IMG/VR virus record: IMGVR_UViG_3300027744_000070
Location: 1-32,010 of that record
DNA length: 32,010 bases
From: a virus
Taxonomy: Duplodnaviria > Caudoviricetes
Strand: one strand, 5' to 3'
The notes below the pieces were generated by a model. The model saw only the letters and a program-made list of their open reading frames with translations, was not told the DNA's origin and did no database searches. The number at the start of each line of letters is the position of its first letter. The first letter of the stretch is position 1. Made by a program: the position numbers and the translations under genes. This document shows, piece by piece, positions 6,206 to 29,289 of this stretch.

Positions 6206-6246
6206 TATTTAAGTGGGTAGACGGTATAATCTACCCACTTATTAGT
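6201..6246 (+). terminator. Strong stem-loop directly after the giant structural gene (terminator or RNA-processing/stability element)
   Basis: Perfect 12-bp inverted repeat TAAGTGGGTAGA (6210-6221) / TCTACCCACTTA (6230-6241), extendable across a bulge by ACTAAT/ATTAGT. No clear poly-U tail. Confidence 0.55.
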
Positions 6247-6252
6247 ATTAGG

Positions 6253-6258
6253 TAAATA
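6253..6258 (+). promoter_or_regulatory. Candidate phage late promoter core (TAAATA)
   Basis: TAAATA lies 17 nt before the ATG at 6276 and resembles the T4 late promoter TATAAATA. Another ATAAATA is at 6165-6171. Confidence 0.45.
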
Positions 6259-6275
6259 TAAAAAAGAGATCATTT

Positions 6276-6887: not shown

Positions 6888-9031
6888 TGCCATATCAAAT
6901 TGACCATTTTGACCAACCTAACAACGGAAGTATTACAGTTAACGATTTAGACTTAAATCAAACAACTGATTTAAGTTTTGTAGGAAAGAATCTTCCAGGA
7001 TATGCCCAAGCAATTGGAGAAAATTTCCTACATTTACTAGAAAATTTTGCTAGTTCTTTCATTGATCGTCCAACAAAACCTGTATTAGGACAACTATGGT
7101 ATGACACTGGTACTACTTCGAGCCCACCTCAACCACAATTAAAAGTTTGGGATAGTACTAAATGGGTAGCTGCAGGCAATGTAACAAAAAGTATTGCCCG
7201 TCCCACAACAGCAGTCATTGGAGATCTATGGGTCGACACAAGTAATCAACAATTATACTTATGGTCAGGATCTAACTGGTTACTAGTCGGACCTCAATTT
7301 AGTGAAGGAACGCAGTCAGGACCTAAAGTAGAGTCAATTTATGATACAGCAAACTTACCACGCATTATATTAAACTTTATCATTGCTGGTGAAGTTGTTG
7401 CAATTATTAGTAAAGATACATTTACACCAAAAATAACAATTGATGGATTTTCAGTAATCAATCAAGGTGTTAACATGTCAACTAAAGACTTTGATCTTAA
7501 TGGAATTGTACTTAACAAGTTTTGGGGAACAGCTGATCGTGCAACAAAACTTGTAGTATCAGGGTATGCTGATGGTCTTGATGCAAATAATTTCCTTAGA
7601 GGTGATGTTGCAAGTACTACTGACTACGGTCTTACTATTAAAAACAATGCCGGATTAATTGTAGGTGCCGATCTTAATACTACACTAACTAACACATTAA
7701 ATGGTGCTACAGTTTTAACTAATAAAATTGAAGGTTCTAGTATATTCCTTAGAGTTAATCAAGCAGGAACTTCTAGTGATGTGTTGACAGTCACCGGAAC
7801 AAGCGTAGGTATAAACAAAACAAATCCTGCAGAAGCATTAGATATTAATGGTAAACTACAAGTTAGTAATGATATAATTGTTACCAGCACAACAGATAGT
7901 ACAACCTTAAGTAATGGCAGTATTAAAACTGCAGGTGGCGCAAGTATTGCAAAAACTCTGCGTGTAGGCACCGGTGCTCATATTACTGGCACACTAACTT
8001 CAAATTCTATCACTCCAGTAGCAAACAATGTACATAATATTGGTACTAATTTGTTACGTTACAACACAATTTATGCTAATAACATTGGCAATCCAGACCT
8101 TAGTACAATTTTTACTGGATCTTTTAACGGTGCATTTAATGGTTCAGTTACTGGAACAGCAACTCGACTAGTTAGCTCTACAGATTTTTCTTTAACTGGC
8201 GACGTTATTAGTACTAACACAATTAGTTTTGACGGTCAGCAAGTTGGCGGCACTGCAATTTTTACAACTGCATTAAGTTCAGACGTTATTGGTAATAAGA
8301 TTGAATTGCTTGATTTTCTTTCTACAGATGAACTGCTAGTAAACAGACCATTAACTGGCCTAAGAAAAATAACAAAAACAACGTTCCTATCTACAGTAGC
8401 GACAGTGCCTATTGGATCTCTTGTGTCATTTGCAGGAACAACATTACCCAATGGTTACCTATTATGTGACGGTGCAGAGGTATCAATTAGTTCATACCCC
8501 GAACTGTTTGCAACCATAGGCACCAGTTATAATGGGTTAGTACCATTAGTAGGTATTGCAACATTTAGATTGCCTGATCTAAGAGGTAGGATGGCCATTG
8601 GTGCTGATAATATGAATAATGGTATATCAGTTCCTTTATTACCATCTGGCGCAACATCAGGAACAACTACGTTAGATAAAGACGGAATCCCTGGACCAGT
8701 AGCTAACAGAGTTACTGCAGTATCAGCGGATACTGTAGGGTTATCAAACGGTAATGAAGAACAATCAATTAATATTACAAACCTTCCTGATCACGTTCAC
8801 GACTTTACCGGAGATACCGGCACCCAGTTTTACTCAGTCACTGATTCAACAGATCCTGGATCTATTGCAGACTCTGAAGCGGTTGGCCGTTCAGTACAAT
8901 TACAAACTGGGTACAGTAAGTTTATGGTAAACAGCGGCAGCGTAGATTCAACAACTACTGATCTACCTTTGAATATTATGAATCCTTACTTAACAATAAA
9001 CTACATAATTTATACTGGTAGGATTGTATAA
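6887..9031 (+). CDS. Tail fibre protein with C-terminal tail-collar domain
   Basis: Tail-collar motif VPIGSLVSFAG...GYLLCDG....SYPELFATIG...FRLPDLRGR (about 8405-8590) and C-terminal NIMNPYLTINYII. The N-terminal GKN..GY...ENFLHLLENFA...GQLWYD domain is shared with the next two genes. Confidence 0.85.
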   Translation: MPYQIDHFDQPNNGSITVNDLDLNQTTDLSFVGKNLPGYAQAIGENFLHLLENFASSFIDRPTKPVLGQLWYDTGTTSSPPQPQLKVWDSTKWVAAGNVTKSIARPTTAVIGDLWVDTSNQQLYLWSGSNWLLVGPQFSEGTQSGPKVESIYDTANLPRIILNFIIAGEVVAIISKDTFTPKITIDGFSVINQGVNMSTKDFDLNGIVLNKFWGTADRATKLVVSGYADGLDANNFLRGDVASTTDYGLTIKNNAGLIVGADLNTTLTNTLNGATVLTNKIEGSSIFLRVNQAGTSSDVLTVTGTSVGINKTNPAEALDINGKLQVSNDIIVTSTTDSTTLSNGSIKTAGGASIAKTLRVGTGAHITGTLTSNSITPVANNVHNIGTNLLRYNTIYANNIGNPDLSTIFTGSFNGAFNGSVTGTATRLVSSTDFSLTGDVISTNTISFDGQQVGGTAIFTTALSSDVIGNKIELLDFLSTDELLVNRPLTGLRKITKTTFLSTVATVPIGSLVSFAGTTLPNGYLLCDGAEVSISSYPELFATIGTSYNGLVPLVGIATFRLPDLRGRMAIGADNMNNGISVPLLPSGATSGTTTLDKDGIPGPVANRVTAVSADTVGLSNGNEEQSINITNLPDHVHDFTGDTGTQFYSVTDSTDPGSIADSEAVGRSVQLQTGYSKFMVNSGSVDSTTTDLPLNIMNPYLTINYIIYTGRIV

Positions 9032-10053
9032 TGACTTATAAAATTAATAAAACAGATGGAACCTTGCTAACAGAAATTGTTGACAGTACTGTTGACCAAA
9101 CAGCCACAGACCTCACACTTATTGGTAAGAACGTTGCCGGTTACGGTGAATTTTTTAATGAAAATTTAATAAAACTATTAGAAAACTTTGCAAATACTTC
9201 AGCTCCTAATAATCCAGTAACTGGTCAGATTTGGTATGACACTGCAACCAGCAGATTAAAAGTATATGACGGCAACGGGTTTAGAATAGGAAGCGGTCCT
9301 ATCGTGCAACCTACTGCTCCTAGTATTGTAGCACAAGGTGATCTGTGGATTGACAGTACAGAAAAGCGTTTGTATTTTTATTCATCTGCAAACAACAGAT
9401 ATGAAGCAAGTAAAATATGGGGCGACAGTCAACAAAAGTCTGGATTTGAAGTTGTATCATTATATGATACAAACAATGCACTACGAGTAATTGTTGAATT
9501 ATGGGCGCAAGGTCAACTGTTAGGAATTTTTAGTAGTAGTACAATAGAATTTACACCAAAGACTGCTATAACTAATTTTACAGGCACAATTAAGCCAGGA
9601 TTTAATGCTAGTACACTTTCTGGAATGAAGTTTAATGTTACTGCTAGTAAAGCAGACACAATAACAGGACTTAGTGGAGCGACTCTAGACTATACTGATT
9701 TTATGAGTACTGGTGGTGATACTAGCACATCCGGCACAGTAGCAATTGCAAACAATCTACCGTTATTGTTGGGACCAAATCAGAATTTTGAAATAGCAAC
9801 AAATGTAAGCACATTGGCAATTACTAGTAATTTTGGAAATGCTAAAGTAGGAATATTAACTAATACGCCGGAATATACATTAGATGTTGCAGGAGGAGTT
9901 AGGGCCACGACTCAACTCCAGCTGCCAAAATACACAACAAGTGCCCGTGATCTTAGAGTAATGACTAGTGCAAATAACGGCGAGCTAATTTATAATACAA
10001 CAACTGATAAAATCCAGGCTTATGCAGCAGGAGCATGGGTTGATTTAAATTGA
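9031..10053 (+). CDS. Tail fibre protein (short paralog)
   Basis: Same N-terminal domain (LIGKNVAGYGEFFNENLIKLLENFA...GQIWYD), a VGILTNTPEYTLDVAG fibre repeat, and a C-terminal GELIYNTT...AWVDL module. Confidence 0.75.
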   Translation: MTYKINKTDGTLLTEIVDSTVDQTATDLTLIGKNVAGYGEFFNENLIKLLENFANTSAPNNPVTGQIWYDTATSRLKVYDGNGFRIGSGPIVQPTAPSIVAQGDLWIDSTEKRLYFYSSANNRYEASKIWGDSQQKSGFEVVSLYDTNNALRVIVELWAQGQLLGIFSSSTIEFTPKTAITNFTGTIKPGFNASTLSGMKFNVTASKADTITGLSGATLDYTDFMSTGGDTSTSGTVAIANNLPLLLGPNQNFEIATNVSTLAITSNFGNAKVGILTNTPEYTLDVAGGVRATTQLQLPKYTTSARDLRVMTSANNGELIYNTTTDKIQAYAAGAWVDLN

Positions 10054-10062
10054 TTTTGAAAC

Positions 10063-10068
10063 TAAATA
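10063..10068 (+). promoter_or_regulatory. Candidate late promoter core (TAAATA)
   Basis: Intergenic TAAATA followed by the RBS-like AAGGGG and the ATG at 10093. Confidence 0.45.
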
Positions 10069-10092
10069 CATAAAGTTAAGGGGTAGAACTAA

Positions 10093-11229
10093 ATGCCATA
10101 TAGTATTGATAGATATAGTGGTACAACACCAGTAGTAGTAGAAGATGGTACAATTAATAGTACATTTGATATTAAGCTAATCGGCAAAAATTACGCTGGT
10201 TACGGTGAAGTACAAAACGAGAATTTCCTACATTTGTTGGAAAGCTTCTCTGGCGGAAGTCAACCCCCTCGTCCAATTAGCGGCCAAATTTGGTTTGATT
10301 CGACTCAGAGTAAACTAAAATTCTATGACGGTAGTAGATTTCGATCTACAGGCGGCGCAGAAATTGGTGGCGATGAACCTGTAGGATTAACAACAGGTGA
10401 CTTTTGGTTTGATACTGATAATAATCAACTTTATGTTAAAAAACCGTCAACCGGATATGTATTAATCGGCCCGCAAACTGCCGGCGGCATTGGTACCACA
10501 CAGATGCGTTCTAGATCAGTAAAAGACGATCTAGGTGTATCTCATGCTATTATTGAAGCTATTATTAATGATGAACCTTTATATGTAATTTCTGCAGATG
10601 AATTTACACTTGATGATGGTATTAATCCTATTTTAGGATTTAGCGACATTAAAAAAGGTCTTACACTAACAGGTACAGATTCAACAGGAGTTACGTCAAC
10701 TGCTCACACATTCTGGGGAACTGCTAGTAATGCATTACAAACTGATGAATTACTAGTGCAAGGCACATACAGACTTGCTACTACACTAGCAACTATAAAC
10801 ACTGTTGCTGCAAGAGATGCAAGCGGCGACCTTTATGCAAATGTATTTCAAGGTACTGCTACTACAGCTAGATTTGCTGACTTAGCAGAAAAGTATCTTG
10901 CAGATGCAGAATATGCTCCAGGTACTGTTATGGTAGTAGGTGGAGAAAAAGAAATAACTGCTAGTTCATGGGGCAAACGTGCAATAGGTGCAGTAAGTAC
11001 AAATCCTGCTTACATGATGAATAGCGAATTAGAAGGCGGTACTTATGTTGCACTAAAAGGGCGTGTACCTGTTCGAGTTATTGGCGCAGTGAAAAAAGGT
11101 GACAATCTTATCGCAGCAAACAACGGGTGTGCTAGCGTAGGAGTCCATCATTCAACTGATGTATTTGCTATTGCTTTAGAATCTAGTAACGATACCAGTG
11201 TAAAGTTAATAGAAGCAATTATATTGTAA
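10093..11229 (+). CDS. Tail fibre/spike protein with a C-terminal peptidase G2-like intramolecular chaperone domain
   Basis: Shared N-terminal domain (LIGKNYAGYGEVQNENFLHLLESF...GQIWFD). The C-terminal ADLAEKY...PGTV...GAVSTNPAYMMN...VALKGRVPVRV.G.VKKGD pattern is typical of peptidase_G2-like autocleaving domains. Confidence 0.7.
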   Translation: MPYSIDRYSGTTPVVVEDGTINSTFDIKLIGKNYAGYGEVQNENFLHLLESFSGGSQPPRPISGQIWFDSTQSKLKFYDGSRFRSTGGAEIGGDEPVGLTTGDFWFDTDNNQLYVKKPSTGYVLIGPQTAGGIGTTQMRSRSVKDDLGVSHAIIEAIINDEPLYVISADEFTLDDGINPILGFSDIKKGLTLTGTDSTGVTSTAHTFWGTASNALQTDELLVQGTYRLATTLATINTVAARDASGDLYANVFQGTATTARFADLAEKYLADAEYAPGTVMVVGGEKEITASSWGKRAIGAVSTNPAYMMNSELEGGTYVALKGRVPVRVIGAVKKGDNLIAANNGCASVGVHHSTDVFAIALESSNDTSVKLIEAIIL

Positions 11230-11238
11230 GGAAAGAAA

Positions 11239-12141
11239 ATGGCAGCAGGTGTTGGACAATTAATTCAAGCAACAGACTATAACAGTATTAGAGCTGTTGT
11301 AGATACTGTGATGGGTACAGGTACTAGCGGGTATGGACAGACTTTAACTTCAGCTGATGTATCCGCCGGTAATCAAATCACCGCACTGCAGTGGCTTAAC
11401 CTGCGCACTGACATGGTAAAAGCAAGACAACACCAAGTTGGTTCTGCAGTTGGATCAACTACAGCAACAGACGGTAGAAATTTAGTGGTCCCGGCCAGTG
11501 GAGCAGCAATCACGGAAGCATTTAGATCTCAATACAGCACATTTGCTACTACTCTTAACACTAACAAGTACTCTATTGATACAGATAGTGCTGGCGGACA
11601 ATTCTCAACAGAAGGATTGCTCACTAGGACACAATCATCTACTTGGAATTCAACATTGACTCATACTGTTACTATTACTGGTAACACAGGCGGAAATGGA
11701 TCTGCAGCTAATATGCGTTATTTCTTTAATGCAGGCGGCAAAATAAGAATTAGTGCAAACATAACTACTGGCACTAGTAAGAACAATGACTGGAACACAA
11801 TGTTCACTCAAATGGGCGAATTTGTTATGAACTATACTGCTACAACATACACAGGGTCATCAGCAACTAGTTATTCAATCGGCTGGGAAGATCTAAATAC
11901 TAGCAATCAATTAATTGGTGAAAAGGCAGCACCTGCAGGATCATATGCTGAGAACAGATACTATGCGTATGCTAGAAAATCTGCTGATGGCACACAATTA
12001 ATTCTTACAATGGAATACCGCGATAATGATGCAGGCGATCCAAACTTTGACGAAGATGTACAACCAACACTAAACACAGTGGTTGCAATGTATCGCCCAA
12101 GCGGCACAAATGTTTCTGTATTAACACCAACTGCTGCCTAA
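11239..12141 (+). CDS. Ser/Thr/Gly-rich virion structural protein (fibre-associated)
   Basis: 300 aa with RBS AAGGAAAG. T/S/G/A-rich beta-type composition, contains RYFFNAGG.I, and is the last gene of the fibre block. Confidence 0.55.
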   Translation: MAAGVGQLIQATDYNSIRAVVDTVMGTGTSGYGQTLTSADVSAGNQITALQWLNLRTDMVKARQHQVGSAVGSTTATDGRNLVVPASGAAITEAFRSQYSTFATTLNTNKYSIDTDSAGGQFSTEGLLTRTQSSTWNSTLTHTVTITGNTGGNGSAANMRYFFNAGGKIRISANITTGTSKNNDWNTMFTQMGEFVMNYTATTYTGSSATSYSIGWEDLNTSNQLIGEKAAPAGSYAENRYYAYARKSADGTQLILTMEYRDNDAGDPNFDEDVQPTLNTVVAMYRPSGTNVSVLTPTAA

Positions 12142-12165
12142 TCAGGACGGCAATACCCATACCTC

Positions 12166-12199
12166 TTGACAAGATAACTACTATATTGTATAGTAGTTA
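12166..12199 (+). promoter_or_regulatory. Sigma70-type promoter overlapped by an 11-bp palindrome, upstream of the glycosyltransferase cassette
   Basis: TTGACA (12166-12171), a 17-nt spacer and TATAGT (12189-12194). Perfect inverted repeat TAACTACTATA-ttg-TATAGTAGTTA (12175-12199). GGAGG RBS at 12204-12208. Confidence 0.7.
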
Positions 12200-12213
12200 C
12201 TCTGGAGGTCTCT

Positions 12214-12561
12214 GTGGACGAACGATTAGAAAAAGCATTTCAAACAGCCAATTACATGGCTACACTTGGCAATCTTAGAAAGACTGCCTTAGAAGAATAC
12301 AACCAAAGTCTCATCTATTACTTTCAAGGATCCAGTTTTACTGTGTCTAGAGAGTTGATTGTTTTTGTGCATACATTAACTGAGCTTGGGAATACAGAAT
12401 CAATTCTATTAGATGACAACCGTATTCCTTTAAAAGTTTCAAACTTACAGGAATTTTTAGATAATATGTTGTCAGTATATAATGAAGCAACTAATGAATA
12501 TTTGGCCAAGTATGCAGACTTAAGATCTAAAAGACGAGTTGGAGATCTAGTAAATCTATGA
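12214..12561 (+). CDS. Hypothetical protein, possibly tail-fibre assembly chaperone-like
   Basis: GTG start with GGAGG RBS. Helix-beta-helix layout with LDDNRIP, loosely similar to fibre-assembly proteins. ATGA overlap with the next gene. Confidence 0.5.
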   Translation: MDERLEKAFQTANYMATLGNLRKTALEEYNQSLIYYFQGSSFTVSRELIVFVHTLTELGNTESILLDDNRIPLKVSNLQEFLDNMLSVYNEATNEYLAKYADLRSKRRVGDLVNL

Positions 12562-13394
12562 CTCGTGGTGTTCTAATTTTTGCTCAAAATAACAGTGAAA
12601 TTGACTATGCTAAAATCTCATTGTTTGCTGCCGAACAAGTTAAACGACATCTAAATGTACCTGTTAGTTTAATCACTGATAGTAAAGATTGGTTATTACA
12701 AAGTCAACCAACGGCAGCAGATGTGTTTGATCAGTTTATTACAACCTGGACCGACACACAGCAGACAAAAAGATTCTATGATGGTACACTTGCATCTAAA
12801 ACATTAACGTGGAAAAATCTAAATAGATCAGATTGCTATGATCTAACTCCCTATGATGAAACACTGGTTATTGACAGTGACTACATTATTAATAGTTCTA
12901 ATCTAGCTAAGATATGGGATAATGTTAATGATTTTTTAATCTACCAAGATAGTTTTGATCTTGCTCAGTGGAGAGATGATAGAAGTTTTAGATACTTAAA
13001 TCAATATGCTATTCCTTTCTATTGGGCAACGGCGTTTTACTTTAAAAAGTCAAAAGTAAATCAAGCGTTTTTTGATCTTGTAAAGCACGTTAAACAAAAT
13101 TGGGGTTATTTTAGAGCTCTATATAATATTGATTCAACTGTGTTTAGAAACGATTTTGCGTTTAGTATCGCAATACATATGATGGGCACTGACTTTGCTA
13201 AATCGTTACCTGGTAAAATGAACTACACTCTTGATAGAGATGTGCTAGTTGACATAGAAGATACTACGTTAAAATTTTTAGTTGAAAAGAAAAATTATTC
13301 AGGAGAATATATTGCTACTAAAACTAAGGATCTAGACATGCATGTTATGAACAAATACAGTCTAACAAGATACTTAAACAAGGAAGCACAATGA
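12558..13394 (+). CDS. GT-A-fold glycosyltransferase-like protein (paralog A1)
   Basis: N-terminal GVLIFA strand and YDLTPYDETLVIDSD with a DxD motif after a hydrophobic strand, followed by FYFKKS and RNDFAFSIA. Confidence 0.7.
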   Translation: MTRGVLIFAQNNSEIDYAKISLFAAEQVKRHLNVPVSLITDSKDWLLQSQPTAADVFDQFITTWTDTQQTKRFYDGTLASKTLTWKNLNRSDCYDLTPYDETLVIDSDYIINSSNLAKIWDNVNDFLIYQDSFDLAQWRDDRSFRYLNQYAIPFYWATAFYFKKSKVNQAFFDLVKHVKQNWGYFRALYNIDSTVFRNDFAFSIAIHMMGTDFAKSLPGKMNYTLDRDVLVDIEDTTLKFLVEKKNYSGEYIATKTKDLDMHVMNKYSLTRYLNKEAQ

Positions 13395-14215
13395 CACAGG
13401 GCTTCTTAGTTATTGCACAAAATAGCGATGTTGATTATGTTCGTCAAGCATACGCCCTTGCACTAAGCATTAAGGCTACTCAGCCAACAATTAATAATAT
13501 TAGTATTGTTACTAATGATCATGTGCCTGAAGAATATCAATCAGTTTTTGATCAAATAATTCCTATACCGTTTGGTGATGCTGCTGCCTCTAGTGAATGG
13601 AAAATTGAAAATCGTTGGAAGTTATATTATGCAAGTCCATATGATGAAACTATAGTATTTGATGCTGACATGTTAGTATTGGATAACATTGAACATGCAT
13701 GGAAATTTGTTAATGATCGTGATTTATTTTTTACATCTCGTGTAGCAGATTATAAAGATCGCACTATTGTTGATACTGTATATAGAAAAACATTTGTAGA
13801 AAATGACTTGCCTAATCTATATTGTGGAATGTTCTATTTTAGAAAATCTGAAACTGCCCTAACATTTTTTAAACTAGTTGAATTCATTACAAATAACTGG
13901 CAACGAATTTATTACGATAATGCTCCTAAACAACAGCAGAAATTTTTTAGCATGGATGTTACTGTAGCTATTGCTGCAAAAATATTAGGAATTGAAGATA
14001 CAATAGTTCACACTAATTCTCCTTTTACTTTTGTACACATGAAACCTGCATTACAAGGATGGGATCCTATTCCAGTATCGTGGTTAACTCAAATGATGAT
14101 TAATTTTAACAATCGTAGAGAATTATATTTTAATAATTTTAAACAATCAGGCGTAGTACATTATGTTGAAGATCAATTTCTTACTGATCAAATTATTGAG
14201 AAATTAAATGTATAA
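13391..14215 (+). CDS. GT-A-fold glycosyltransferase-like protein (paralog A2)
   Basis: YYASPYDETIVFDADMLV (DxD), FYFRKS, and a C-terminal FVHMK His. Visibly paralogous to 12558-13394. Confidence 0.72.
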   Translation: MTQGFLVIAQNSDVDYVRQAYALALSIKATQPTINNISIVTNDHVPEEYQSVFDQIIPIPFGDAAASSEWKIENRWKLYYASPYDETIVFDADMLVLDNIEHAWKFVNDRDLFFTSRVADYKDRTIVDTVYRKTFVENDLPNLYCGMFYFRKSETALTFFKLVEFITNNWQRIYYDNAPKQQQKFFSMDVTVAIAAKILGIEDTIVHTNSPFTFVHMKPALQGWDPIPVSWLTQMMINFNNRRELYFNNFKQSGVVHYVEDQFLTDQIIEKLNV

Positions 14216-14837
14216 TCCTGAAGAAGATATTATTCCTCCAGAACTGTTGGCACAAGCACTAGCATTGAGCAACACATCTTTAGTATATAGAGTGTACTTT
14301 GATAAAGATAACGGAAATTTGTTGTCTATTACTAACGAAGAAAATTTATCCTTTTCAAATTTTGTTGAATTTGAATATGATACAATTAGAGAATTTTTAG
14401 TTGAAAAAAAACAATTAGCAAAATATAAAATTATTTTTATAGATCAAAACACACCTAAGATTGTATCTATATATGAAGATTCAAGCACAGGAATATTTTT
14501 AACTGAAGTTCCAGTAGTTGATAATTGGGACAACATGTTTACTATTGAAAATTACCCATTACTAAAAAAATGGGGGTTTCAAATTAGGCCAGATCAAAAA
14601 CAGTCTTTATTAAAATATAATCTTAACACTAGTCTTGAGATTTATGTAGTAGACAATAGTAGCATGAATTTTATCTATAGAACTATTAAACTTTCTGTAA
14701 ATGATTTAATTAACAAAGATAGAGAGCTTGTAGATTATCAGTTAGATAAAGAAGGTGATATTATTAACATATCGGTATATGTTAAACAATTTTTTTCCAC
14801 AGTTGGATATCAAATATTATATGACACAAACAGTTAA
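14208..14837 (+). CDS. Hypothetical protein within the glycosyltransferase cassette
   Basis: 209 aa, overlaps both neighbours, very AT-rich, no catalytic motif seen. Confidence 0.7.
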   Translation: MYNPEEDIIPPELLAQALALSNTSLVYRVYFDKDNGNLLSITNEENLSFSNFVEFEYDTIREFLVEKKQLAKYKIIFIDQNTPKIVSIYEDSSTGIFLTEVPVVDNWDNMFTIENYPLLKKWGFQIRPDQKQSLLKYNLNTSLEIYVVDNSSMNFIYRTIKLSVNDLINKDRELVDYQLDKEGDIINISVYVKQFFSTVGYQILYDTNS

Positions 14838-15735
14838 AATTTTAGATTACGATATAATTTACCTTAGTTACGACGAACCAAATGCAGAAAAAAATTATGC
14901 AGATTTACTAAAGAAAGTGCCGTGGGCAAAACGTGTTCATGGCGTTAAAGGTAGCGATGAAGCACACAAGGCCTGCGCTAGATTAAGTGACACAGACAGA
15001 TTTGTCACAGTGGACGGTGATAACATTGTACGTGAAGACTTTCTTAATCAAGAAGTCAACTTTGAAGAACATAAAGACTTATCAAAGTGTGTTATTAGTT
15101 GGGCAGGATACAACGTAGTCAACGGACTTATGTACGGCAATGGCGGATTAAAGTTGTGGCCTAAACAGTATGTGCTAGACATGAAAACACATGAAAACGC
15201 ACCCGCTGACGATCCTAATGCACAGGTAGATTTTTGTTGGGATGCAGAATACATACAGATGAATAGTTGTTACAGTGATGTCTATAATAATGCTAGCCCA
15301 TTCCAAGCATGGCGAGCTGGATTCCGTGAAGGCGTAAAGATGTCACTTGATCGCGGAGTTAAGACTGCTAACAAAGAATTTAAGAAAGAAATACATTGGA
15401 AAAATCTACAACGATTACTAGTATGGCTTAATATAGGACAAGACACTATTAATGGTAACTGGGCTATATTAGGAGCAAGACACGGTTGTTATATGACTAA
15501 TTGTACAGATTGGGATTACGTGCAAGTTAGAGACTTTGAGTATCTTACCAACATGTGGAAAACAGAAATAGAAAGTATAACTGATTTAGATACTAAAATT
15601 TCTTACTATGGAAATGAGTTAAAAAACGCACTTGATCTTGAAATTGCTAACTTAGATGCAGATGCTAGTAAATTTTTTAAAGCAGTACACCTACAGCAAT
15701 ACAGAAATGGTGTTGGATTTTTGGATAAAGAATAA
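14821..15735 (+). CDS. GT-A-like glycosyltransferase (paralog B1)
   Basis: Likely start is MTQTVKILDY at 14821. Motifs DIIYLSYDEPNA, AHKACA, FVTVDGDN (DxD), YGNGGLKLW and QAWRAGFREGVK. Confidence 0.65.
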   Translation: MTQTVKILDYDIIYLSYDEPNAEKNYADLLKKVPWAKRVHGVKGSDEAHKACARLSDTDRFVTVDGDNIVREDFLNQEVNFEEHKDLSKCVISWAGYNVVNGLMYGNGGLKLWPKQYVLDMKTHENAPADDPNAQVDFCWDAEYIQMNSCYSDVYNNASPFQAWRAGFREGVKMSLDRGVKTANKEFKKEIHWKNLQRLLVWLNIGQDTINGNWAILGARHGCYMTNCTDWDYVQVRDFEYLTNMWKTEIESITDLDTKISYYGNELKNALDLEIANLDADASKFFKAVHLQQYRNGVGFLDKE

Positions 15736-16802
15736 TGTACGATCTAGTATTTTATAATTCTAAACCGTTATCAGTTGAACGCGGCAAATTACTAACAGAA
15801 AAATTTCCATTTGCTAAATTTATAGAATTTGATATTACGCTAACTAATACAGCTGAACTAGCTAAGAAAAATGTTTTTACTAACTTCTTTTGGTTCATTG
15901 ATTCTAGTTATGAATTTTTAGATGACATGTTAGTATTTGAACCTAAAAAATGGGATAGTGAATACATCCATGTTTTTAAACTCTATCAACAATATACCGA
16001 AAAATGTCAATGCTATCTTATTGCAAAAAATAGGCAAATAGATACTACGCAAGAGTTTTTCACTAGTGTAAAATATAATAATCAATATACGTTGCAAGAT
16101 ATAACATACGACATATTTTTTCTATCTTACAATGAGCCCAATAGTTGGGCAAACTGGCAAATACTAAGTAAGAGATTCCCTCAGGCAAAACGTGTATACG
16201 GAGAAGCCAATATCTATCTCAGTCACAAGGCCTGTGCTGAACAATCTACAACAGATTATTTTTGGGTAGTTGACGCTGATAATGAAGTACTAGATTCATT
16301 TAACTTTGATTATTTTGTAGAAGATTATAACTTTGATCTAGTACATATTTGGCATAGTCGTAATGAAATAAATGATCTAGAGTACGGCAATGGTGCTATT
16401 AAGCTATTGCCTAAAATGTTGTTTGGTGGAACAGAAGGTGGAGTTGACATTACTACTAGTCTTAGTAATAAACTTAAAATTATTCCTACAGTAGCAAGCG
16501 TTAATAGATTTGCATCTAGTCCGTGGAATGCATGGCGTAGCGGATTTAGAGAAGCTGCAAAGTTAGCCAGCAGTACGATTGCACGAACAAATCAAGATGA
16601 GACTGCTGAACGATTACAAGCATGGACCACTAAAGGATTAGATAGACGGTTTGGAGAATATGTAATACCGGGTGCAATGTTAGGTATGCAGTATGGAATT
16701 GAGAATAAAAATAACCAGGACGCATTAATTAAAATTAATGACTGGTCCTGGTTGTACGAACAATTTAAACTTAATGTTAAGTTGCCAATGCGCCCTGAGT
16801 AA
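15735..16802 (+). CDS. GT-A-like glycosyltransferase with a degenerate N-terminal duplicate domain (paralog B2)
   Basis: The C-terminal part has DIFFLSYNEPN, SHKACA, FWVVDADN, YGNGAIKL and AWRSGFREAAK, matching B1. The N-terminal ~115 aa is a decayed copy (FFWFIDSS). Confidence 0.65.
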   Translation: MYDLVFYNSKPLSVERGKLLTEKFPFAKFIEFDITLTNTAELAKKNVFTNFFWFIDSSYEFLDDMLVFEPKKWDSEYIHVFKLYQQYTEKCQCYLIAKNRQIDTTQEFFTSVKYNNQYTLQDITYDIFFLSYNEPNSWANWQILSKRFPQAKRVYGEANIYLSHKACAEQSTTDYFWVVDADNEVLDSFNFDYFVEDYNFDLVHIWHSRNEINDLEYGNGAIKLLPKMLFGGTEGGVDITTSLSNKLKIIPTVASVNRFASSPWNAWRSGFREAAKLASSTIARTNQDETAERLQAWTTKGLDRRFGEYVIPGAMLGMQYGIENKNNQDALIKINDWSWLYEQFKLNVKLPMRPE

Positions 16803-17460
16803 CTAGATCAGTAGCCATTGGAAAGATAGCAGCAATTGCACTAGCACATGCAACGGCTACTTCTTGATGCTCTTTCTGTGTACCATTTGCACTACGTAGT
16901 TCAATAAAATGTATCCAGCTACGTAGAGTACCGTTCATATATAAACGACTTTCAATAAGACCTTCTGGTAGTACTGCTCGAGCCTGCTCTTTTGCTATGC
17001 CATTTTTAATAGCCCATTCGTACTCTCTTTTTGCGGCATAGATAACTCTTTGTTGGGCACGAAACCATTCGTTTTGTAAATCTGTATCATCTACTTGAAC
17101 ACTGTTCTGGCGATTCTTTGGATCTTGTAGTCTTGCTTCTCTAGTGACAAAGTTAAGATCTTTAGTAGGGTCCGCATATCGTTGGCTAAATTCTTGAAAA
17201 CTAAAACTCCTATGTCTAAGAATTTGTCTAGCAATATCTCTAGTGGTAGTAATTTCAATACAGGCTGAAACCATTTCAAGTGGCGACCAGTGTTGATGTT
17301 TGACTAGATACTTAATTAGTTTCTCACTAGTTTCTGTATTAAGTTGATTGCTAGGATTGCTAACACGGGCGCAGTACGCAATAAGTTCTTGCGCATCGTC
17401 AACTCCTAAATTAGCAAATTCTTCTGTTGGTTGTGAATATGATAAAAGTTTAACGTTCAT
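16777..17460 (-). CDS. thyX: Flavin-dependent thymidylate synthase ThyX
   Basis: ThyX signature RHRSFSFQEFSQRY, plus ARVS, HWSPLE, EQARAVLP and QKEH. Confidence 0.96.
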   Translation of the reverse strand: MNVKLLSYSQPTEEFANLGVDDAQELIAYCARVSNPSNQLNTETSEKLIKYLVKHQHWSPLEMVSACIEITTTRDIARQILRHRSFSFQEFSQRYADPTKDLNFVTREARLQDPKNRQNSVQVDDTDLQNEWFRAQQRVIYAAKREYEWAIKNGIAKEQARAVLPEGLIESRLYMNGTLRSWIHFIELRSANGTQKEHQEVAVACASAIAAIFPMATDLVTQGALAT

Positions 17461-17777
17461 TTTAATTTTCGTTTTCTTAAAAAAAGATTAGTATGTTTAA
17501 TCATGTCTTTTTTAACTCTTTCTGTATCTAGTTTAAAATCAACATTTTCAATTTCGCTTTCATAAGATGCTAGCATTTCTTTAAGATTCTGTTCAAAAGC
17601 ATCCCAGTCGTCTTTTGCCTGTTTTGAACTTATTTTAATTTCCCAAACTTTTTTATTTTTAAATGTAACCGTGACTGAGTCTAAGTATACTAGGGGAACT
17701 ACGTTTAACGTAATTTCCCCAAATACTTCAGGCCAATGTTCAACAACATCTTTAGGAAATATCTTTCCTTTATTCAC
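17457..17777 (-). CDS. Hypothetical protein
   Basis: 106 aa with 4-nt ATGA overlaps with both neighbours. Confidence 0.7.
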   Translation of the reverse strand: MNKGKIFPKDVVEHWPEVFGEITLNVVPLVYLDSVTVTFKNKKVWEIKISSKQAKDDWDAFEQNLKEMLASYESEIENVDFKLDTERVKKDMIKHTNLFLRKRKLK

Positions 17778-18430
17778 GCTTTAACAGTAGCTTTTTTCTT
17801 TGTTGGCGCAAGTGCTTCAGCTTGTCTGCGTAATTCGGCCGCTTCTTTGCTTAGTCTATCAGCATCACTGCGATATTTTTTAGCAAGTGCGTCATCGGTT
17901 AACGGCTCGATGGATTCGTTAACCGACATGCTAGTAGTGCGTCCGTAATCTTCCTGATCCATTAATGGATCAGTGTTGCCAGTTTTAGGACTAATATCAG
18001 CTACTCTTGCCATTTCTTGAATTTCAACATTCTGATTTGCATTAGGCTTAATAGCAAGATCCTGTACGCTAACACCTGCTTGTTGTGCAATAATTTGATT
18101 TAATTCTGACAACATAATAGTTGTCTGCATATTAGGAACCATCTCAATAGCGTCAGTCGGAAACTTAGCCATTAGTCCTTTTACATGCAAGCTAGGTAAC
18201 ATTGTGCTACCGTCTGAAAATACAGCACGAGCTAATACTTCACTAAATTCATTTGCAGATTGAGCTGCATTAGACTCGACCAGACTTACTAGTTGATCAT
18301 GATAGCTTGAGTCAAGACTTTCTGTTTGAACAACAAGACAACTAAATGCATCGCCTGGCAATGTTCTAAACACTACCATACATCTACGACCAGTTGTTTT
18401 AATTCTTCCTACGTGTTTTAAGGATTGCAT
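17774..18430 (-). CDS. Hypothetical protein with C-terminal coiled coil and basic tail
   Basis: 218 aa with AAGGAG RBS. C-terminal helix ADRLSKEAAELRRQAEAL followed by KKK. Confidence 0.75.
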   Translation of the reverse strand: MQSLKHVGRIKTTGRRCMVVFRTLPGDAFSCLVVQTESLDSSYHDQLVSLVESNAAQSANEFSEVLARAVFSDGSTMLPSLHVKGLMAKFPTDAIEMVPNMQTTIMLSELNQIIAQQAGVSVQDLAIKPNANQNVEIQEMARVADISPKTGNTDPLMDQEDYGRTTSMSVNESIEPLTDDALAKKYRSDADRLSKEAAELRRQAEALAPTKKKATVKA

Positions 18431-18431
18431 A

Positions 18432-18653
18432 TCAAGCTCCTTGCTTTGATGTTTTTGCTACTGAATCTAAAAATGCAGACAGTTTATTGTATGTTTGCCC
18501 AACGGCTACCATTTCGTTAGGCTTAAAAGCACCGCGTGAACTAGCAATGTCAATAATAGTTTTCATAGCACTAAGATCGCTAATGGTTAAATCATTTGAT
18601 TCTTGTTGTGGCGCAGTTTCTGCCGGTTGTTGTATATTGGTTTCTTCAGTCAT
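18432..18653 (-). CDS. Small hypothetical protein
   Basis: 73 aa with a strong AGGAGG RBS. Contains IIDIASSRGAFKPNEM. Confidence 0.75.
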   Translation of the reverse strand: MTEETNIQQPAETAPQQESNDLTISDLSAMKTIIDIASSRGAFKPNEMVAVGQTYNKLSAFLDSVAKTSKQGA

Positions 18654-18695
18654 AAGACCTCCTTATATGAATTATATATGCTTATTAATTATCTG

Positions 18696-18974
18696 TTAGG
18701 TTAAATGTGGGCAGGCAAGTTTGAAGAAACTAAGTTCTTTTTCTTGCTCAAATCCAATTTTAGTAACGTAGACTATTGTATTGTCTACTAGATCTACAGC
18801 TTGTCCTACATAATAGCGACTGTTAAGATTTTGATATATCCAAGAGTCTATTGTTTTATGATAGGTAGGTGTATATTTTTCTAATAGTGTATAATGAAAA
18901 TGATGTGCTGGAAAAGAGACTTTTCTTAAATCTAATGCATTAAGTGCATTAGGTTTACCGTTTTTTAATGCCAT
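18696..18974 (-). CDS. Hypothetical protein
   Basis: 92 aa, TAATG-coupled to the upstream methyltransferase-like gene. Confidence 0.7.
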   Translation of the reverse strand: MALKNGKPNALNALDLRKVSFPAHHFHYTLLEKYTPTYHKTIDSWIYQNLNSRYYVGQAVDLVDNTIVYVTKIGFEQEKELSFFKLACPHLT

Positions 18975-19543
18975 TATTTGTAACCAATAGTCATGTGTCT
19001 AGTGTAAGGTGCATCTTTAAAATCAAAATGCAATGATCCACTAAACAACTCTTTGAGAGGCCAGAGAGATTTGAAATGTTCTAAATTTTCTGGACGCTGT
19101 ACGTGATCATCTATAACTAGGTCATTACCTTGAAACAAGCACAATGTACCGTTGGGTATACGATCGTACCATTCTCTACTGGCAAAATGTTCAGTGGATG
19201 TATTGACTACTAGGTTAATGTTATCATCGTATGTAGCTTTATTAGCATCTCTAGGAAACGACCTAAACTGCCAATCTTTTATTTCCCAAGTGTTATTGAT
19301 AAGATTTGCATCCATACACGCACTCGGATCAACATCATAAGACCTACAGTATTCAATGGCTACCCGTTCTCTAGTCTGCAGAATAAAATGCAGTAGTGCA
19401 TACCATCCGCCTAGTATAGCAATACGTAGTGGCTCAATTTTTTGTTGAGCCACTACAGTTTCTAATTCACGTGCCGCCCAAATTTTACTTTCAATTTGCC
19501 CAGCACTGAATGCATCAGGATCAATTTTTATCACTAGACTCAT
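18974..19543 (-). CDS. Class I SAM-dependent methyltransferase-like protein
   Basis: Likely start is MSLVIKID at 19543. Motif-I-like IAILGGWYA, acidic end of strand 2 (SYDVDP), and LVVNTSTEH at strand 4. Confidence 0.55.
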   Translation of the reverse strand: MSLVIKIDPDAFSAGQIESKIWAARELETVVAQQKIEPLRIAILGGWYALLHFILQTRERVAIEYCRSYDVDPSACMDANLINNTWEIKDWQFRSFPRDANKATYDDNINLVVNTSTEHFASREWYDRIPNGTLCLFQGNDLVIDDHVQRPENLEHFKSLWPLKELFSGSLHFDFKDAPYTRHMTIGYK

Positions 19544-20699
19544 AGTATGCGTGAGCACCAAATGGAGGAACAATAGTGTTATTGCCGTGGATGATGAATA
19601 CTGTATCGCAGTAGTTTTCATCACCCCAGCTGCCGTATGGATAACCGTCAGTAAACATGATAAACTTTTTAGGTTGAATATCGTTAGCTTTCATGTAGTC
19701 CCAGTTAACATCAAACTCGGTACCGCCACCGCCCTTGACTTCGTATTCCATAATGTCTTCACCGTACCCGTCAAAATCTGCTTCATTATAGACTTTGGTA
19801 TCAAAGCACCACAATTTAATTTTGTAGTCTTTGTATTCTTCCATAATACCTTTAATTTCACTAATAAAGTCTTTAGCTTGCTCGTCACTAATAGAACCTG
19901 ACATGTCAATACCAATACAAATGTCAATAGTCTCAGCATAGTTAGTGCCTGGCAAAATTGCACTCATGTGCCATGCTTTGCGGTTAGGACGCATAAAGGT
20001 ATAGTCGTTTTTAATAGTGCTTTGGATTTGCTGACGTAAAATTTCACGCCAGTTCATCTTAGGCTCTGTAAGCTCTTTAATCATGCGTCCAATCTCTGCA
20101 GGCACATTTCCCGCACCCGCTGCCTGAGCCGCTGTCATCATAGCTTCTTTGATCTCATCACGGATTTGCTTGAGCTCTTCTTTACTGTAAGCAGGCTGAC
20201 CATTTTTGCCTTCCTTCTCCCAGTCAATATGTTCGTCTAACAACTCGCCAAGTGCCGCTAATTCTTCATCATCATACTGCTCATAGATCTCATCATAGAT
20301 CTGTTCTGAGCTTTTGCCGTAGTGAGCAGTGTCGTGGAAGATTTTAATCTTAGGAGGAGCTTCACCAATACGATCACGTGTCAATGTACCGTTAACTGAG
20401 TAGTCAGCGGCAATGTTCCATATCTTACGATCACGACCTTCTACACGGAGCATGTGCTCAAAAACGTTATGCAGAATTTCGTGTGCTACTACAAACTCAA
20501 CTTGTTTAACAGATAAATCTGCAAAAAAGTCTTTATTGTAATATAAGTGACGTCCGTCTGTAGCGGCAGTAGCACACCAGTCTGACGCATCTTCAATTTT
20601 AAGACGAGTAGCCATATTGCCAAAAAACGGATGTCGTAGTAGCAATCCAACACGAGCCACTACAATTTTATCAACAATTGGGTCTAGATAATTTGACAT
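19521..20699 (-). CDS. DUF2201-type protein: HExxH metallopeptidase-like domain plus VWA domain
   Basis: TAATDG, HEILH, WNIAAD, then the MIDAS elements IDMSGS, GGGT and FTDG. Adjacent to an AAA+ ATPase. Confidence 0.88.
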   Translation of the reverse strand: MSNYLDPIVDKIVVARVGLLLRHPFFGNMATRLKIEDASDWCATAATDGRHLYYNKDFFADLSVKQVEFVVAHEILHNVFEHMLRVEGRDRKIWNIAADYSVNGTLTRDRIGEAPPKIKIFHDTAHYGKSSEQIYDEIYEQYDDEELAALGELLDEHIDWEKEGKNGQPAYSKEELKQIRDEIKEAMMTAAQAAGAGNVPAEIGRMIKELTEPKMNWREILRQQIQSTIKNDYTFMRPNRKAWHMSAILPGTNYAETIDICIGIDMSGSISDEQAKDFISEIKGIMEEYKDYKIKLWCFDTKVYNEADFDGYGEDIMEYEVKGGGGTEFDVNWDYMKANDIQPKKFIMFTDGYPYGSWGDENYCDTVFIIHGNNTIVPPFGAHAYYESSDKN

Positions 20700-20731
20700 T
20701 TTTTGCTCCTAAGTATTTACTGTATGTATAT

Positions 20732-20760
20732 ATTATAACAGGACCCGCAGGTCCTGTCAA
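20732..20760 (-). promoter_or_regulatory. Consensus sigma70 promoter whose spacer is a GC-rich hairpin
   Basis: Minus strand TTGACA (20760-20755), 17-nt spacer, TATAAT (20737-20732). Stem ACAGGACC-TGCG-GGTCCTGT spans 20757-20738. Confidence 0.85.
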
Positions 20761-20777
20761 TTGACTTTGGCTACTAA

Positions 20778-21869
20778 TTAACGCTTTTCTGTAGCCGCCG
20801 CAATGTACTTACCATATTTGGCATGGAAGTCGTCAAAGCATTTGATCTCATCTGGATCCAATGGCAACTGATATTGAGTAAGAGCAAGTTTAGTACCCAT
20901 AACAACCAATTCAGTTTCAAAATTATCCATCATAAACTGGAAGAAGTAGTTAACCTTGTCGTTAAACTTCTTGTCGTTTTTGTCGCTAGCATCTTTCAAT
21001 TCGTAGCACAATGACACAGTCAATGAATACATGGCACTGATTTCTTTAGTGTCCATTTTCTTAACCTTGCCGTTTAAGATGTCTGTAGGATCAGGCAATT
21101 TAGATGCAATCTTACGATGAGCCATAAACTTAACAGCTAGACCTTCACCAACAGCACCCGAGATCAAATCTGTCAATGTGTCTGTATCTTCCTCGTCATC
21201 AAACAACAACTCAGATACAAATGACCAGCTACGTGGTGTAGCAAAGGCACGTGATGCTGACTTAGGATCAAAGTCATACAAGTCCTTCTTAGAGAAGGTC
21301 AAGAAGCCAACTACGTCCTTATGGATCTTGTTGTCAACAGCCCAACCAAAATAATCTTCCCAGTCAACTTTCATTTCCAAGTGAACAAAACGGTTAGCCA
21401 ACGGAGCAGGCATACGATAAGTAACACCCTTGTCAGTTTCACGGTTACCAGCGGCAACAATGTGTACATTGTCTGGCAATTTGTAAGTACCAACACGACG
21501 GTTCAAAACAAGTTGATAAGCCGCTGCCTGTACAGCAGGAGCCGCAGAGTTCATTTCGTCCATGAACAAGATGATCTTGCTATGTTGAGCAGCCATCACG
21601 TCATCGGGCAATTCTACAGGCGGTGCCCATTCCATCTTATTAGATGTAGAATTGAAAAACGGAATACCTTTAATATCTGTAGGATCCCAAAGTGACAAAC
21701 GAATGTCAATAACATGGGCATTCAATTCTTCGCCCATTTGTTTAACAATATCGGATTTACCAATGCCTGGAGGTCCCCAGATGAACAATGGACGATTGGC
21801 TTTAAAAGCACGACGAAGGGATTTTTTAGCGGCTTTAGGGCCAACTGTACGTGAAAGGATCTCGCTCAT
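20778..21869 (-). CDS. MoxR-like AAA+ ATPase
   Basis: Walker A GPPGIGKS, Walker B ILFMDE, sensor AAGN, Arg finger ANRF and TPRSW. AGGAG RBS. Paired with the VWA gene. Confidence 0.9.
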   Translation of the reverse strand: MSEILSRTVGPKAAKKSLRRAFKANRPLFIWGPPGIGKSDIVKQMGEELNAHVIDIRLSLWDPTDIKGIPFFNSTSNKMEWAPPVELPDDVMAAQHSKIILFMDEMNSAAPAVQAAAYQLVLNRRVGTYKLPDNVHIVAAGNRETDKGVTYRMPAPLANRFVHLEMKVDWEDYFGWAVDNKIHKDVVGFLTFSKKDLYDFDPKSASRAFATPRSWSFVSELLFDDEEDTDTLTDLISGAVGEGLAVKFMAHRKIASKLPDPTDILNGKVKKMDTKEISAMYSLTVSLCYELKDASDKNDKKFNDKVNYFFQFMMDNFETELVVMGTKLALTQYQLPLDPDEIKCFDDFHAKYGKYIAAATEKR

Positions 21870-26642: not shown

Positions 26643-26854
26643 TTACATGTTCCTAAAAAATCATCTAATCTTTTTGCAGCCTCGTCAAAGTCTACAGCCC
26701 ACACCTTAGCTGTTATTATACTATCTTTAATCTGCATGTCAAATGGGATCTCACCATTCATCCGGAACTCATCCGGAACTTCAGTAGTAACAGTAAACTC
26801 AGTTAAGTTCTTTGCTCTAAAGATTAAATTGTTAGCCATGTCTACTGAATTCAT
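26639..26854 (-). CDS. Small hypothetical protein
   Basis: Likely start is MNSVDMA at 26854, preceded by an AAGGAA RBS. 71 aa. Confidence 0.65.
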   Translation of the reverse strand: MNSVDMANNLIFRAKNLTEFTVTTEVPDEFRMNGEIPFDMQIKDSIITAKVWAVDFDEAAKRLDDFLGTCK

Positions 26855-26862
26855 AATATTCC

Positions 26863-28486: not shown

Positions 28487-28515
28487 ATTGTACTACTTTA
28501 TTTAGGTTTTTGCAA
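28487..28515 (-). promoter_or_regulatory. Candidate sigma70 promoter for folE with an embedded TAAATA
   Basis: Minus strand TTGCAA (28515-28510), 17-nt spacer, TACAAT (28492-28487). TAAATA lies at 28504-28499 inside the spacer. Confidence 0.55.
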
Positions 28516-29289
28516 CCTAAATAGGACATTTTTCTTAATTGCTGTCTTCAATACGCTCAATTGTACGCCTAGTTTATTTGCATACTTTACCCAAGCAGTT
28601 GTATCTTTTGGAAAACACATGCCGCCAAATCCGTAATATCCATCTGGACCCGGTACCTGCATGTGACTCAACCCAATACGGTTGTCTTCTGCTAGATACA
28701 TTCTAATAGCGTCCCAGCGATATCCGTGTGCTACTGCCAGCTCACTCATTTCATTCATAAACACTACTTTGGTAGCTAGATATGAATTGATTGTATATTT
28801 GACAAAAGCAGCTTCACCTATTGAACAATGCTCTACCATTGTTATAGGTTGTACTAGTTTGATAATACGTTCTGCTTCATTTCTATAGGCAGCAATTTTT
28901 CCACCTATGATAGCATTTTGTTCTTTGAGATAATCTTGATTGGCTTTAGCGGCTGTTAAAAACTCTGGTATGTGTACAAGATTAGGATAGACAGTCTGCA
29001 TCTTTTCGTAGAACTGTGGCGTAGCAGTGGTCTTGCTGATAATTACATTTTTATAATCACTTAACATGTACAGCACAGAATTTAAAATGCTAGTGTCGCA
29101 TTCGCCGGTATCCTTTGAGGGACTAGGTACACATACAAATACTGCATCACAATCTTGTAAATCTGCATAAGTACCTGTAGATTTTTTTGGATCAATGTCT
29201 ACAACAATTACGTCAGTAAACAACGTTTCGTAGGCATTGAGTACAGCTTCTCCAACAAACCCTAATCCAACAATGCCTATTTTTGTCAT
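28498..29289 (-). CDS. ugd: UDP-glucose/GDP-mannose dehydrogenase family protein (lacks the C-terminal domain)
   Basis: Rossmann GIVGLGFVG, FVCVPSP, KTT, PEFL, KYTINSYLATKVVFMNE and catalytic GFGGMCFPKD. Only 263 aa. Confidence 0.85.
   Translation of the reverse strand: MTKIGIVGLGFVGEAVLNAYETLFTDVIVVDIDPKKSTGTYADLQDCDAVFVCVPSPSKDTGECDTSILNSVLYMLSDYKNVIISKTTATPQFYEKMQTVYPNLVHIPEFLTAAKANQDYLKEQNAIIGGKIAAYRNEAERIIKLVQPITMVEHCSIGEAAFVKYTINSYLATKVVFMNEMSELAVAHGYRWDAIRMYLAEDNRIGLSHMQVPGPDGYYGFGGMCFPKDTTAWVKYANKLGVQLSVLKTAIKKNVLFRLQKPK

Follow-up and report, generated by a model that had tools for sequence, protein, structure and literature searches.

What does a jumbo myophage do with a run of glycosyltransferase genes placed at the end of its virion genes? 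The question is raised by a 32,010-nucleotide stretch of viral DNA (Duplodnaviria; Caudoviricetes), positions 1 to 32,010 of IMG/VR record IMGVR_UViG_3300027744_000070 and hereafter the window. Six plus-strand open reading frames (ORFs) lie at 12214-16802 in the order X1-A1-A2-X2-B1-B2, with successive overlaps of 4, 4, 8, 17 and 1 nucleotides (nt). Together they make up a GT-A operon that is real, conserved, not previously described and linked to the gene of a virion appendage. As to its function, we give about an even chance to cytoplasmic glycosylation of baseplate-appendage proteins with a short, tailored sugar chain before assembly, the putative acceptor being either s300, the product of the gene immediately upstream, or the fibres. 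The six genes are:

12214..12561, plus strand: X1, 115 amino acids (aa), DUF4376 (tail-fibre assembly chaperone C-domain)-like; putative adaptor
12558..13394, plus strand: A1, predicted GT-A, GT8-like glycosyltransferase
13391..14215, plus strand: A2, predicted GT-A, GT8-like glycosyltransferase
14208..14837, plus strand: X2, fast-evolving accessory protein of no known family
14821..15735, plus strand: B1, predicted GT-A (SpsA/GT2-like) N-domain and unmatched helical C-domain; conserved core gene
15735..16802, plus strand: B2, B1 paralog with a 110-aa N-terminal extension; variable member

A first-pass annotation had placed six coupled same-strand ORFs directly behind the fibre genes. The coupling holds, and the position needs a refinement: the gene immediately upstream encodes the 300-aa s300, which is no classical fibre. 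The four DxD motifs are as described and conserved, the paralog pairs A1/A2 and B1/B2 are confirmed, and the two ORFs described as having no catalytic motif have none that is maintained, X1 having no DxD and that of X2 (D32) not being conserved. No membrane segment was found in any of the six proteins (maximum hydropathy 1.34). A Pfam scan assigned no family to any of them, a PHROGs scan of the six returned phrog_1903 for A2 only, and an NCBIfam scan of the four glycosyltransferase-like proteins gave one weak match, to A2.

Conservation of the operon was followed in fetched loci, comprising the best 80 of 264 viral loci (IMG/VR), the best 80 of 613 metagenome loci and 9 from genome contigs; synteny was counted only in loci spanning X1 to the first B gene. 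In these, the order X1-A1-A2-X2-B is exact in 50/60 IMG/VR, 61/63 metagenome and 4/6 distant loci. Three of the misses are a filter artefact, intact on inspection, and in eight a single gene interrupts the order behind A1. X1 is preceded by an s300-family gene in 57/57 IMG/VR, 56/59 metagenome and 6/6 distant loci (119/122 in total), which bears out the proposed linkage to the virion block in related phages. No detectable X1 was found in two marine loci, and A1 relatives numbered 2252 among 2554 candidates. Seven IMG/VR loci have a gene between A1 and A2: in six it encodes a 153-aa hydrophobic protein (for example L059:8099-8560), and in one (L067:7689-8591) a 300-aa protein that by eye is periplasmic-binding-protein-like.

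The constant neighbour closes a plus-strand late structural block made of a 2054-aa virion protein, a 203-aa gene, three fibre-like paralogs and s300:

11239..12141, plus strand: s300, 300-aa virion protein with a predicted helical N-domain and jelly-roll beta-sandwich; constant upstream neighbour of X1

The structure model of s300 has a predicted local distance difference test (pLDDT) score of 91. Fold searches gave weak matches in the PDB (Z at most 6.8) and, in BFVD, phage proteins without names only; a PDB sequence profile search gave nothing credible. A homolog is gp123 of phage PA5oct (expect value, E, 1.4e-42), which closes the same structural gene order as the window block. Because gp123 is annotated as detected by mass spectrometry of the virion (electrospray ionisation tandem mass spectrometry, ESI-MS/MS), s300 belongs to a virion protein family, and it is a candidate glycan acceptor. 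Several soluble glycosyltransferases are linked here to structural genes, as would be expected of a phage virion glycosylation system.

Among 50,697 phage records, clear A1, A2 and B1 matches occur in RsoM2USA only, a soil Ralstonia phage whose ORFs 348-354 hold the cassette in the same order at 25-48% identity. These ORFs are all annotated as hypothetical in the record (PMC8504454). In contrast with the window, RsoM2USA has a twitch radical SAM (S-adenosylmethionine) gene between B1 and B2 and a methyltransferase gene behind B2. A tblastn search with A1 and B1 found no actinophage match, and a viral-contig scan with RsoM2USA B1 found no match. The core also occurs in marine contigs and is therefore kept across soil, freshwater and marine phages, whose hosts presumably differ in their surfaces. 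A gene for a nucleoside diphosphate (NDP)-sugar epimerase/dehydratase lies inside the RsoM2USA tail block, 2.8 kb upstream of X1, between the tail sheath gene and ORF356. ORF355 of the same phage is a fibre N-terminal domain fused to an s300 domain (the two observations are at L081:13642-14619 and 16178-17347).

The enzyme assignment of the first pair is carried by A2. A profile of 70 A2 sequences matches glycogenin (E 7.5e-8) at residues 2-105, the N-terminal half through the DxD motif, and the match ends there. The profile of A1 itself reaches glycogenin at E 0.29, and A1 is assigned as an A2 paralog (28% identity, E 2e-14; profile-profile probability 99.9). Glycogenin belongs to CAZy family GT8; PF01501 (GT8) gave no match for A1 or A2. 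In 65/65 A1 sequences D106, D108, W156-A-T, R197-N-D199, H262 and K266 are invariant. In A2, D93, D189, H216 and K218 are conserved in 70/70 sequences and D91 in 67/70. The later aspartate and the His..Lys pair of both proteins presumably mirror GT8 active-site motifs. Judged by sequence, A1 and A2 are predicted to be GT-A enzymes of a glycogenin/GT8-like kind.

For the second pair (31% identity, E 2e-28), D65 and D67 are invariant in 30/30 B sequences. Since homologs align from ATG 14821, B1 probably starts there and not at GTG 14755. In the B1 structure model (pLDDT 82), residues 3-159 form a GT-A domain that is matched by 45 chains at Z of at least 8. The top six structure rows are glycosyltransferases at Z 9.7-10.8, headed by B4GALNT1 (Z 10.8, root-mean-square deviation (rmsd) 2.9, 140 aligned) and STIV A197 (Z 10.3, rmsd 3.6, 139 aligned), and the nucleotidyltransferases IspD and MobA come next at Z 9.6. 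The fold is also shared with the PBCV-1 capsid glycosyltransferase (Z 7.9), SunS/ThuS (Z 9.4) and TarS/RmlT (Z 8.8), but identity to these viral and GT2 enzymes is 10-15%, B4GALNT1, POMGnT1 and nucleotidyltransferases are equally close, and the helical C-half is unmatched. In Foldseek, E was near 1e-3 at best, with a cytidylyltransferase fusion as the best row. PF00535 (GT2) gave no Pfam match for B1 or B2, weak GT2 matches being confined to two long fusion forms, and a PDB sequence profile of B gave nothing credible. At the superfamily level, B1 is therefore assigned to GT-A by its modelled fold and B2 by paralogy, which together with the glycogenin match of A2 supports the GT-A identity proposed in the first-pass annotation; by the same model, B1 and B2 may have a nucleotidyltransferase-type activity.

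A midpoint-rooted tree was built from 56 B domains that remained when those of the stored loci were thinned by similarity; a few of its rows have wrong position labels (fusions, overlap filter). It has a B1-type and a B2-type clade with support of 1.0 and 0.975, each with phage and bacterial members. Fusions of the B1-B2 type occur in L082, L174, L182, L185 and L190, and for B2 itself a union with a B1-type domain is counted in 4 loci. The N-terminal 110 aa of B2 (window 15735-16060) resemble a decayed repeat of the B N-domain in alignment (FWFIDSS against FWVVDAD), and BLAST gave no confirmation of such a repeat; longer B N-domain repeats are seen in L149, L162, L175 and L186.

The first gene of the operon provides a lead to the acceptor. 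The nearest named Atlas cluster to X1 is DUF4376 (score 0.90, 166/256 features), and the ten best named matches share this family, a conserved domain of tail-fibre chaperones (PMC7882524, PMC10579305). X1 resembles the DUF4376/Tfa chaperones in size, in language-model features and in its position directly behind a virion appendage gene; it differs in standing alone, in having no N-terminal fibre-binding domain and in heading a glycosyltransferase operon. The resemblance, an idea framed before the search, is a lead from sequence features, and to this extent the earlier suggestion that the accessory ORFs are adaptors or chaperones stands for X1. A complex prediction of s300, A1, A2 and X1 itself with X1 as partner gave no answer: its score of 0.69, against 0.54 for a control with s300 replaced, speaks neither for nor against binding. 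A PDB sequence profile of X1 gave nothing credible, and a relationship to the syntaxin Vam3 (E 0.003) was rejected as a matter of helical composition.

X2 is not alike to X1 in a profile comparison (probability 0.4) and has no family by Pfam, PHROGs or PDB sequence profile. It is the most variable core gene, with 23-73% identity among non-identical relatives. A CBM5/12-like repeat (weak, E 4e-4, below cut-off) is inserted in 11 X2, 2 A2 and 1 A1 relatives and is absent from all other ORFs kept from the loci, the profile having been seeded from X2, A2 and A1 proteins. The confinement of the insert to these three hints that X2, A2 and A1 work together.

The same insert fits a second suggestion of the first-pass annotation, that the glycosyltransferase folds are themselves structural: X1, A1, A2 and X2 would belong to the virion as a complex of the fibre tip or baseplate, with these folds binding host glycan. 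A chaperone of the Mu type stays on its fibre (PMC7882524), and X2 varies at the speed of an adhesin. However, the invariant DxD, Asp, His and Lys residues point to catalysis that uses nucleotide sugars, and these are cytoplasmic; ORFs 348-354 are absent from the 10 identified RsoM2USA virion bands, a shallow list (PMC8504454); and there is no late-only promoter pattern. We regard a structural role as remote.

When the cassette is expressed is suggested by the 72-nt gap before X1, which holds two elements:

12166..12194, plus strand: sigma70-type promoter-like site TTGACA-17-TATAGT, an 11/12 consensus match and the best of 50 sites in 5500-20000
12157..12217, plus strand: predicted hairpin in which the ribosome site of X1 (GGAGG, 12204-12208) is paired when the RNA is read-through; contains a late-promoter-like TAACTA (12175-12180)

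Position 12166, where the first-pass annotation began its stretch, is the first base of the promoter-like site. A sigma70-type site with at most one mismatch precedes X1 in 50/96 distinct regions, against a shuffled mean of 0.1; elsewhere it precedes 0/33 copies of the 203-aa gene, 0/179 fibre genes and 6/123 s300 genes. A loose promoter scan found no overall excess (50 sites vs 58.8 shuffled), so that the site is credible because of its conservation and not because of the scan. TAAATA, likely the late motif, is found before 31/33 copies of the 203-aa gene and 0/35 thyX genes. Either a sigma70-like or a loose late-like TAA[ATC]TA motif is present in 89/95 X1 regions, TAA[ATC]TA having been counted without a shuffle control. 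The hairpin has a folding energy of -22.5 kcal/mol (z -3.3), and 0/200 shuffles are equally stable. Mean pairing of the ribosome site is 0.77 in read-through RNA vs 0.35 in the short leader, a trend over 60 X1 regions. Read-through RNA of some T4 genes is silenced by a hairpin, which the one before X1 resembles. With its own promoter-like site and hairpin, the cassette is probably not merely the end of a late fibre operon, and we infer a separate transcription unit that is switched on early in about half of the lineages. Near-consensus sigma70 sites also lie upstream of the vWA-like and AAA genes (window 19521-21869 and relatives), in 28/29 and 18/22 distinct regions.

An early-type promoter would suit modification of DNA, with the phage genome glycosylated on a hydroxymethylated base. 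thyX abuts the cassette in close relatives, and RsoM2USA has a second, divergent thymidylate-synthase-like gene (L218; MG752970.1 7607-8443; E 6e-25), near a deaminase gene and an annotated beta-glucosyltransferase gene, which could make a modifiable base. However, thyX is convergent, and radical SAM genes take its place in most distant loci. In RsoM2USA the thymidylate-synthase-like gene and the annotated DNA-type glucosyltransferase are ∼210 kb from the cassette, so that DNA modification seems to have its own genes there, and the L218 region is likely a separate DNA-modification cluster. In the window, no hydroxymethylase or TET/JBP gene was recognised beside the glycosyltransferases by Pfam or PHROGs; a TET/JBP match is also absent in 2 records, weak evidence given that controls were equally silent. 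Glycosylation of DNA is thus highly improbable.

Behind B1 the gene content varies. The window has here:

18974..19543, minus strand: likely SAM methyltransferase, homologs of which directly follow B2 in distant loci

This gene lies 2.2 kb from the cassette on the other strand, whereas in 20/25 metagenome loci it follows the second B gene. Its assignment comes from weak matches in a few of 25 members (best E 0.001-0.007), and its PDB sequence profile found no match. A CxxxCxxC-motif gene follows B1 in 51/71 metagenome loci, and 8 selected radical SAM genes pass the NF033640 cut-off. These genes give some support to a small-molecule or glycolipid pathway, in which the radical SAM genes would do the main chemistry and the product would not be on protein; the B1 matches to IspD and MobA point the same way. 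Against it, in the lineage of the window all six genes are retained and no radical SAM gene lies beside them, and the fibre-chaperone-like X1 is left unexplained. Such a pathway is very unlikely.

The B family reaches beyond phages. B-family genes occur in 13/238 bacterial genomes of the class of genome G001, a contig of which is titled Bdellovibrionales bacterium. Fifteen bacterial stretches from 11 genomes include 7 with the methyltransferase and 9 with CxxxCxxC genes, and the B copies sit among GT2, GT-C-like and aminotransferase-like genes; no A, X1, s300 or fibre gene was found in the 15 stretches fetched. B2 is the variable member of the cassette, grouped with likely methyltransferase and twitch radical SAM genes in a module common to phages and bacteria of the Bdellovibrionales class. 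The bacterial loci L192-L206, with B-family, methyltransferase, twitch radical SAM, GT2 and GT-C-like genes, are apparently an undescribed surface-glycan tailoring locus. s300 with the full core occurs in one bacterial-titled contig only, that of G001 (L082:4349-17173, G001:C21), as X1-A1-A2-X2-B1, a fused double B gene and five radical SAM genes. It lies behind rimM-pheS-pheT, where G+C drops from 0.47 to ∼0.38, and is either a phage-derived island or a chimeric assembly.

Four observations favour an acceptor on the virion: (i) the chaperone-like first gene, (ii) the fixed virion neighbour, (iii) the epimerase gene in the RsoM2USA tail block and (iv) retention of the core across habitats. Other evidence weighs against such an acceptor, beginning with the virion itself. 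PA5oct, with s300 and the same gene order, gave no match to A2, X1 or B, and such a virion can therefore be built in the absence of the cassette; the A2, X1 and B profiles had no match in five whole relatives, a set that held no positive genome. The first-pass annotation had pointed to Ser/Thr-rich virion proteins upstream. They are rich (18-24% Ser+Thr), but 14 proteins of the homologous block in five cassette-less phages have 13-24%, which removes the value of richness as evidence for glycosylation. No glycoproteomic data showing a glycan on any virion of the group were found in the literature. The synteny counts measure conservation and not independent origins, because the loci are one clade picked by B/A similarity, and the cassette comes last in the late block, a place in which cargo genes may accumulate. 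For X1, the feature count shared with DUF4376 is below the usual same-family level of the Atlas, and the PF14301 hidden Markov model found no match in 18 X1 members or in the window. The bacterial B stretches with none of the other cassette or fibre genes indicate that B can serve a cellular glycan. Fibre genes have no sigma70-type site before them, and its presence before X1 suggests that the operon is expressed early or independently; GT8 also includes transferases of the lipopolysaccharide (LPS) core. Similar tail-linked GT8 genes have been read as O-chain modifiers (PMC7029224).

The last of these points, together with GT8 kinship and the company of the bacterial B copies, agree with a different target, the host surface. 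Early enzymes would glycosylate the LPS core, a lipid-linked glycan or a surface glycoprotein from the cytoplasmic side, and so hide receptors from competing phages or from grazers while a long infection lasts; the promoter-like site in about half of the X1 regions suits this timing, and the latent period of RsoM2USA is 270 min (PMC8504454). However, phages from soil, fresh water and the sea all retain the core, none of the six proteins has a membrane anchor, and the DUF4376-like first gene and fixed s300 neighbour are left unexplained. Host-surface change is possible but doubtful.

If the acceptor is on the virion, the pathway could run as follows. The host sigma70 polymerase, or a phage late promoter in other lineages, would transcribe the operon alone, and the hairpin would silence X1 in read-through RNA. 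X1, as a stand-alone fibre-chaperone-like domain, would hold the unassembled appendage protein and present it to A1 and A2, which would add the first sugars with retention, in the manner of glycogenin-type enzymes on protein hydroxyls. B1 and B2 would extend or cap the chain, and the methyltransferase, joined in relatives by twitch radical SAM enzymes, oxygenases and aminotransferases, would edit the sugars and create lineage-specific variety. The pay-off would likely be a shielded or stickier baseplate surface. In its full form, with X1 as the adaptor of a two-subunit glycogenin-like enzyme acting on appendages, and a swappable B/methyltransferase/twitch radical SAM module, shared with Bdellovibrionales-class bacteria, editing the glycan into lineage-specific coats, this chaperone-guided scheme, which would apply to a widespread clade of aquatic and soil jumbo phages, is unlikely.

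The nearest precedents are only partly alike. In mycobacteriophages, glycans have been shown on capsid and tail-tube subunits (Freeman et al. 2023, as cited in PMC12619734 and PMC10877033). That system and the cassette have in common several phage-encoded glycosyltransferases and a virion protein as acceptor, here a proposed one; the cassette differs in its jumbo myophage background, baseplate-appendage linkage, chaperone-like gene and tailoring enzymes. Core glycosyltransferases are also described for Moraphage (PMC12619734). Aquatic T4-like phages often have glycosyltransferase genes next to their tail genes, and the usual assumption, made without tests, is that the enzymes alter host LPS or DNA (PMC7029224, PMC12801897). 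GT8-type and radical SAM genes likewise adjoin tail-fibre genes in pelagimyophages and cyanomyophages, in what is called the host recognition cluster, but that cluster is non-syntenic, hypervariable and read as O-chain modification (PMC7029224). In the cassette, five genes form a syntenic core preceded by a conserved promoter-like site, and variation is confined to the genes that follow B1. In Synechococcus phage ACG-2014f (L207:13852-15762), genes for a 2-oxoglutarate oxygenase, a methyltransferase and a weakly GT8-like protein (A2 match E 0.4) stand just behind the tail genes, in a parallel of a looser kind. No description of the cassette was found in the literature, subscription journals being mostly outside the reach of the search. 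New here are the conserved promoter-like site and hairpin, the X1-DUF4376 lead, and the B/methyltransferase/radical SAM module shared with bacteria.

The remainder of the window gives the setting. The window covers 32 kb of a record that is 9% complete according to CheckV, which implies a full genome of ∼350 kb. Matches to the fibre N-domain occur in 103 phage records, mainly those of Rak2-, PA5oct-, XacN1- and Atu_ph07-like jumbo phages. The third fibre-like gene (10093-11229) has a C-end that weakly matches the intramolecular chaperone Peptidase_G2 (E 7e-5, below cut-off). Pfam and PHROGs identify on the minus strand thyX, a vWA/AAA pair, an exonuclease, QueE- and FolE-like genes and a gene that may be connected to the cassette:

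28498..29289, minus strand: UDP-glucose dehydrogenase (PF00984 and PF03721; phrog_9148)

The enzyme possibly supplies a sugar donor to the cassette. Its gene is clustered with those of a QueE-like radical SAM protein and GTP cyclohydrolase I at 25501-29289, and this cluster possibly supplies 7-deazaguanine as well as the sugar donor.

The cassette is small, ordered and soluble and has one obvious candidate acceptor, so that the question of what it modifies can be addressed by expressing seven genes. Through the B family, the phage operon is tied to an undescribed glycan-tailoring locus in predatory bacteria. If the chaperone-guided scheme is true, virion glycosylation would extend to phages with Gram-negative hosts, and the radical SAM family NF033640 would gain a role. 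Should the virion be the acceptor, coats of glycan would not be confined to actinophages, and they could shape the adsorption, grazing and antibody recognition of jumbo phages.

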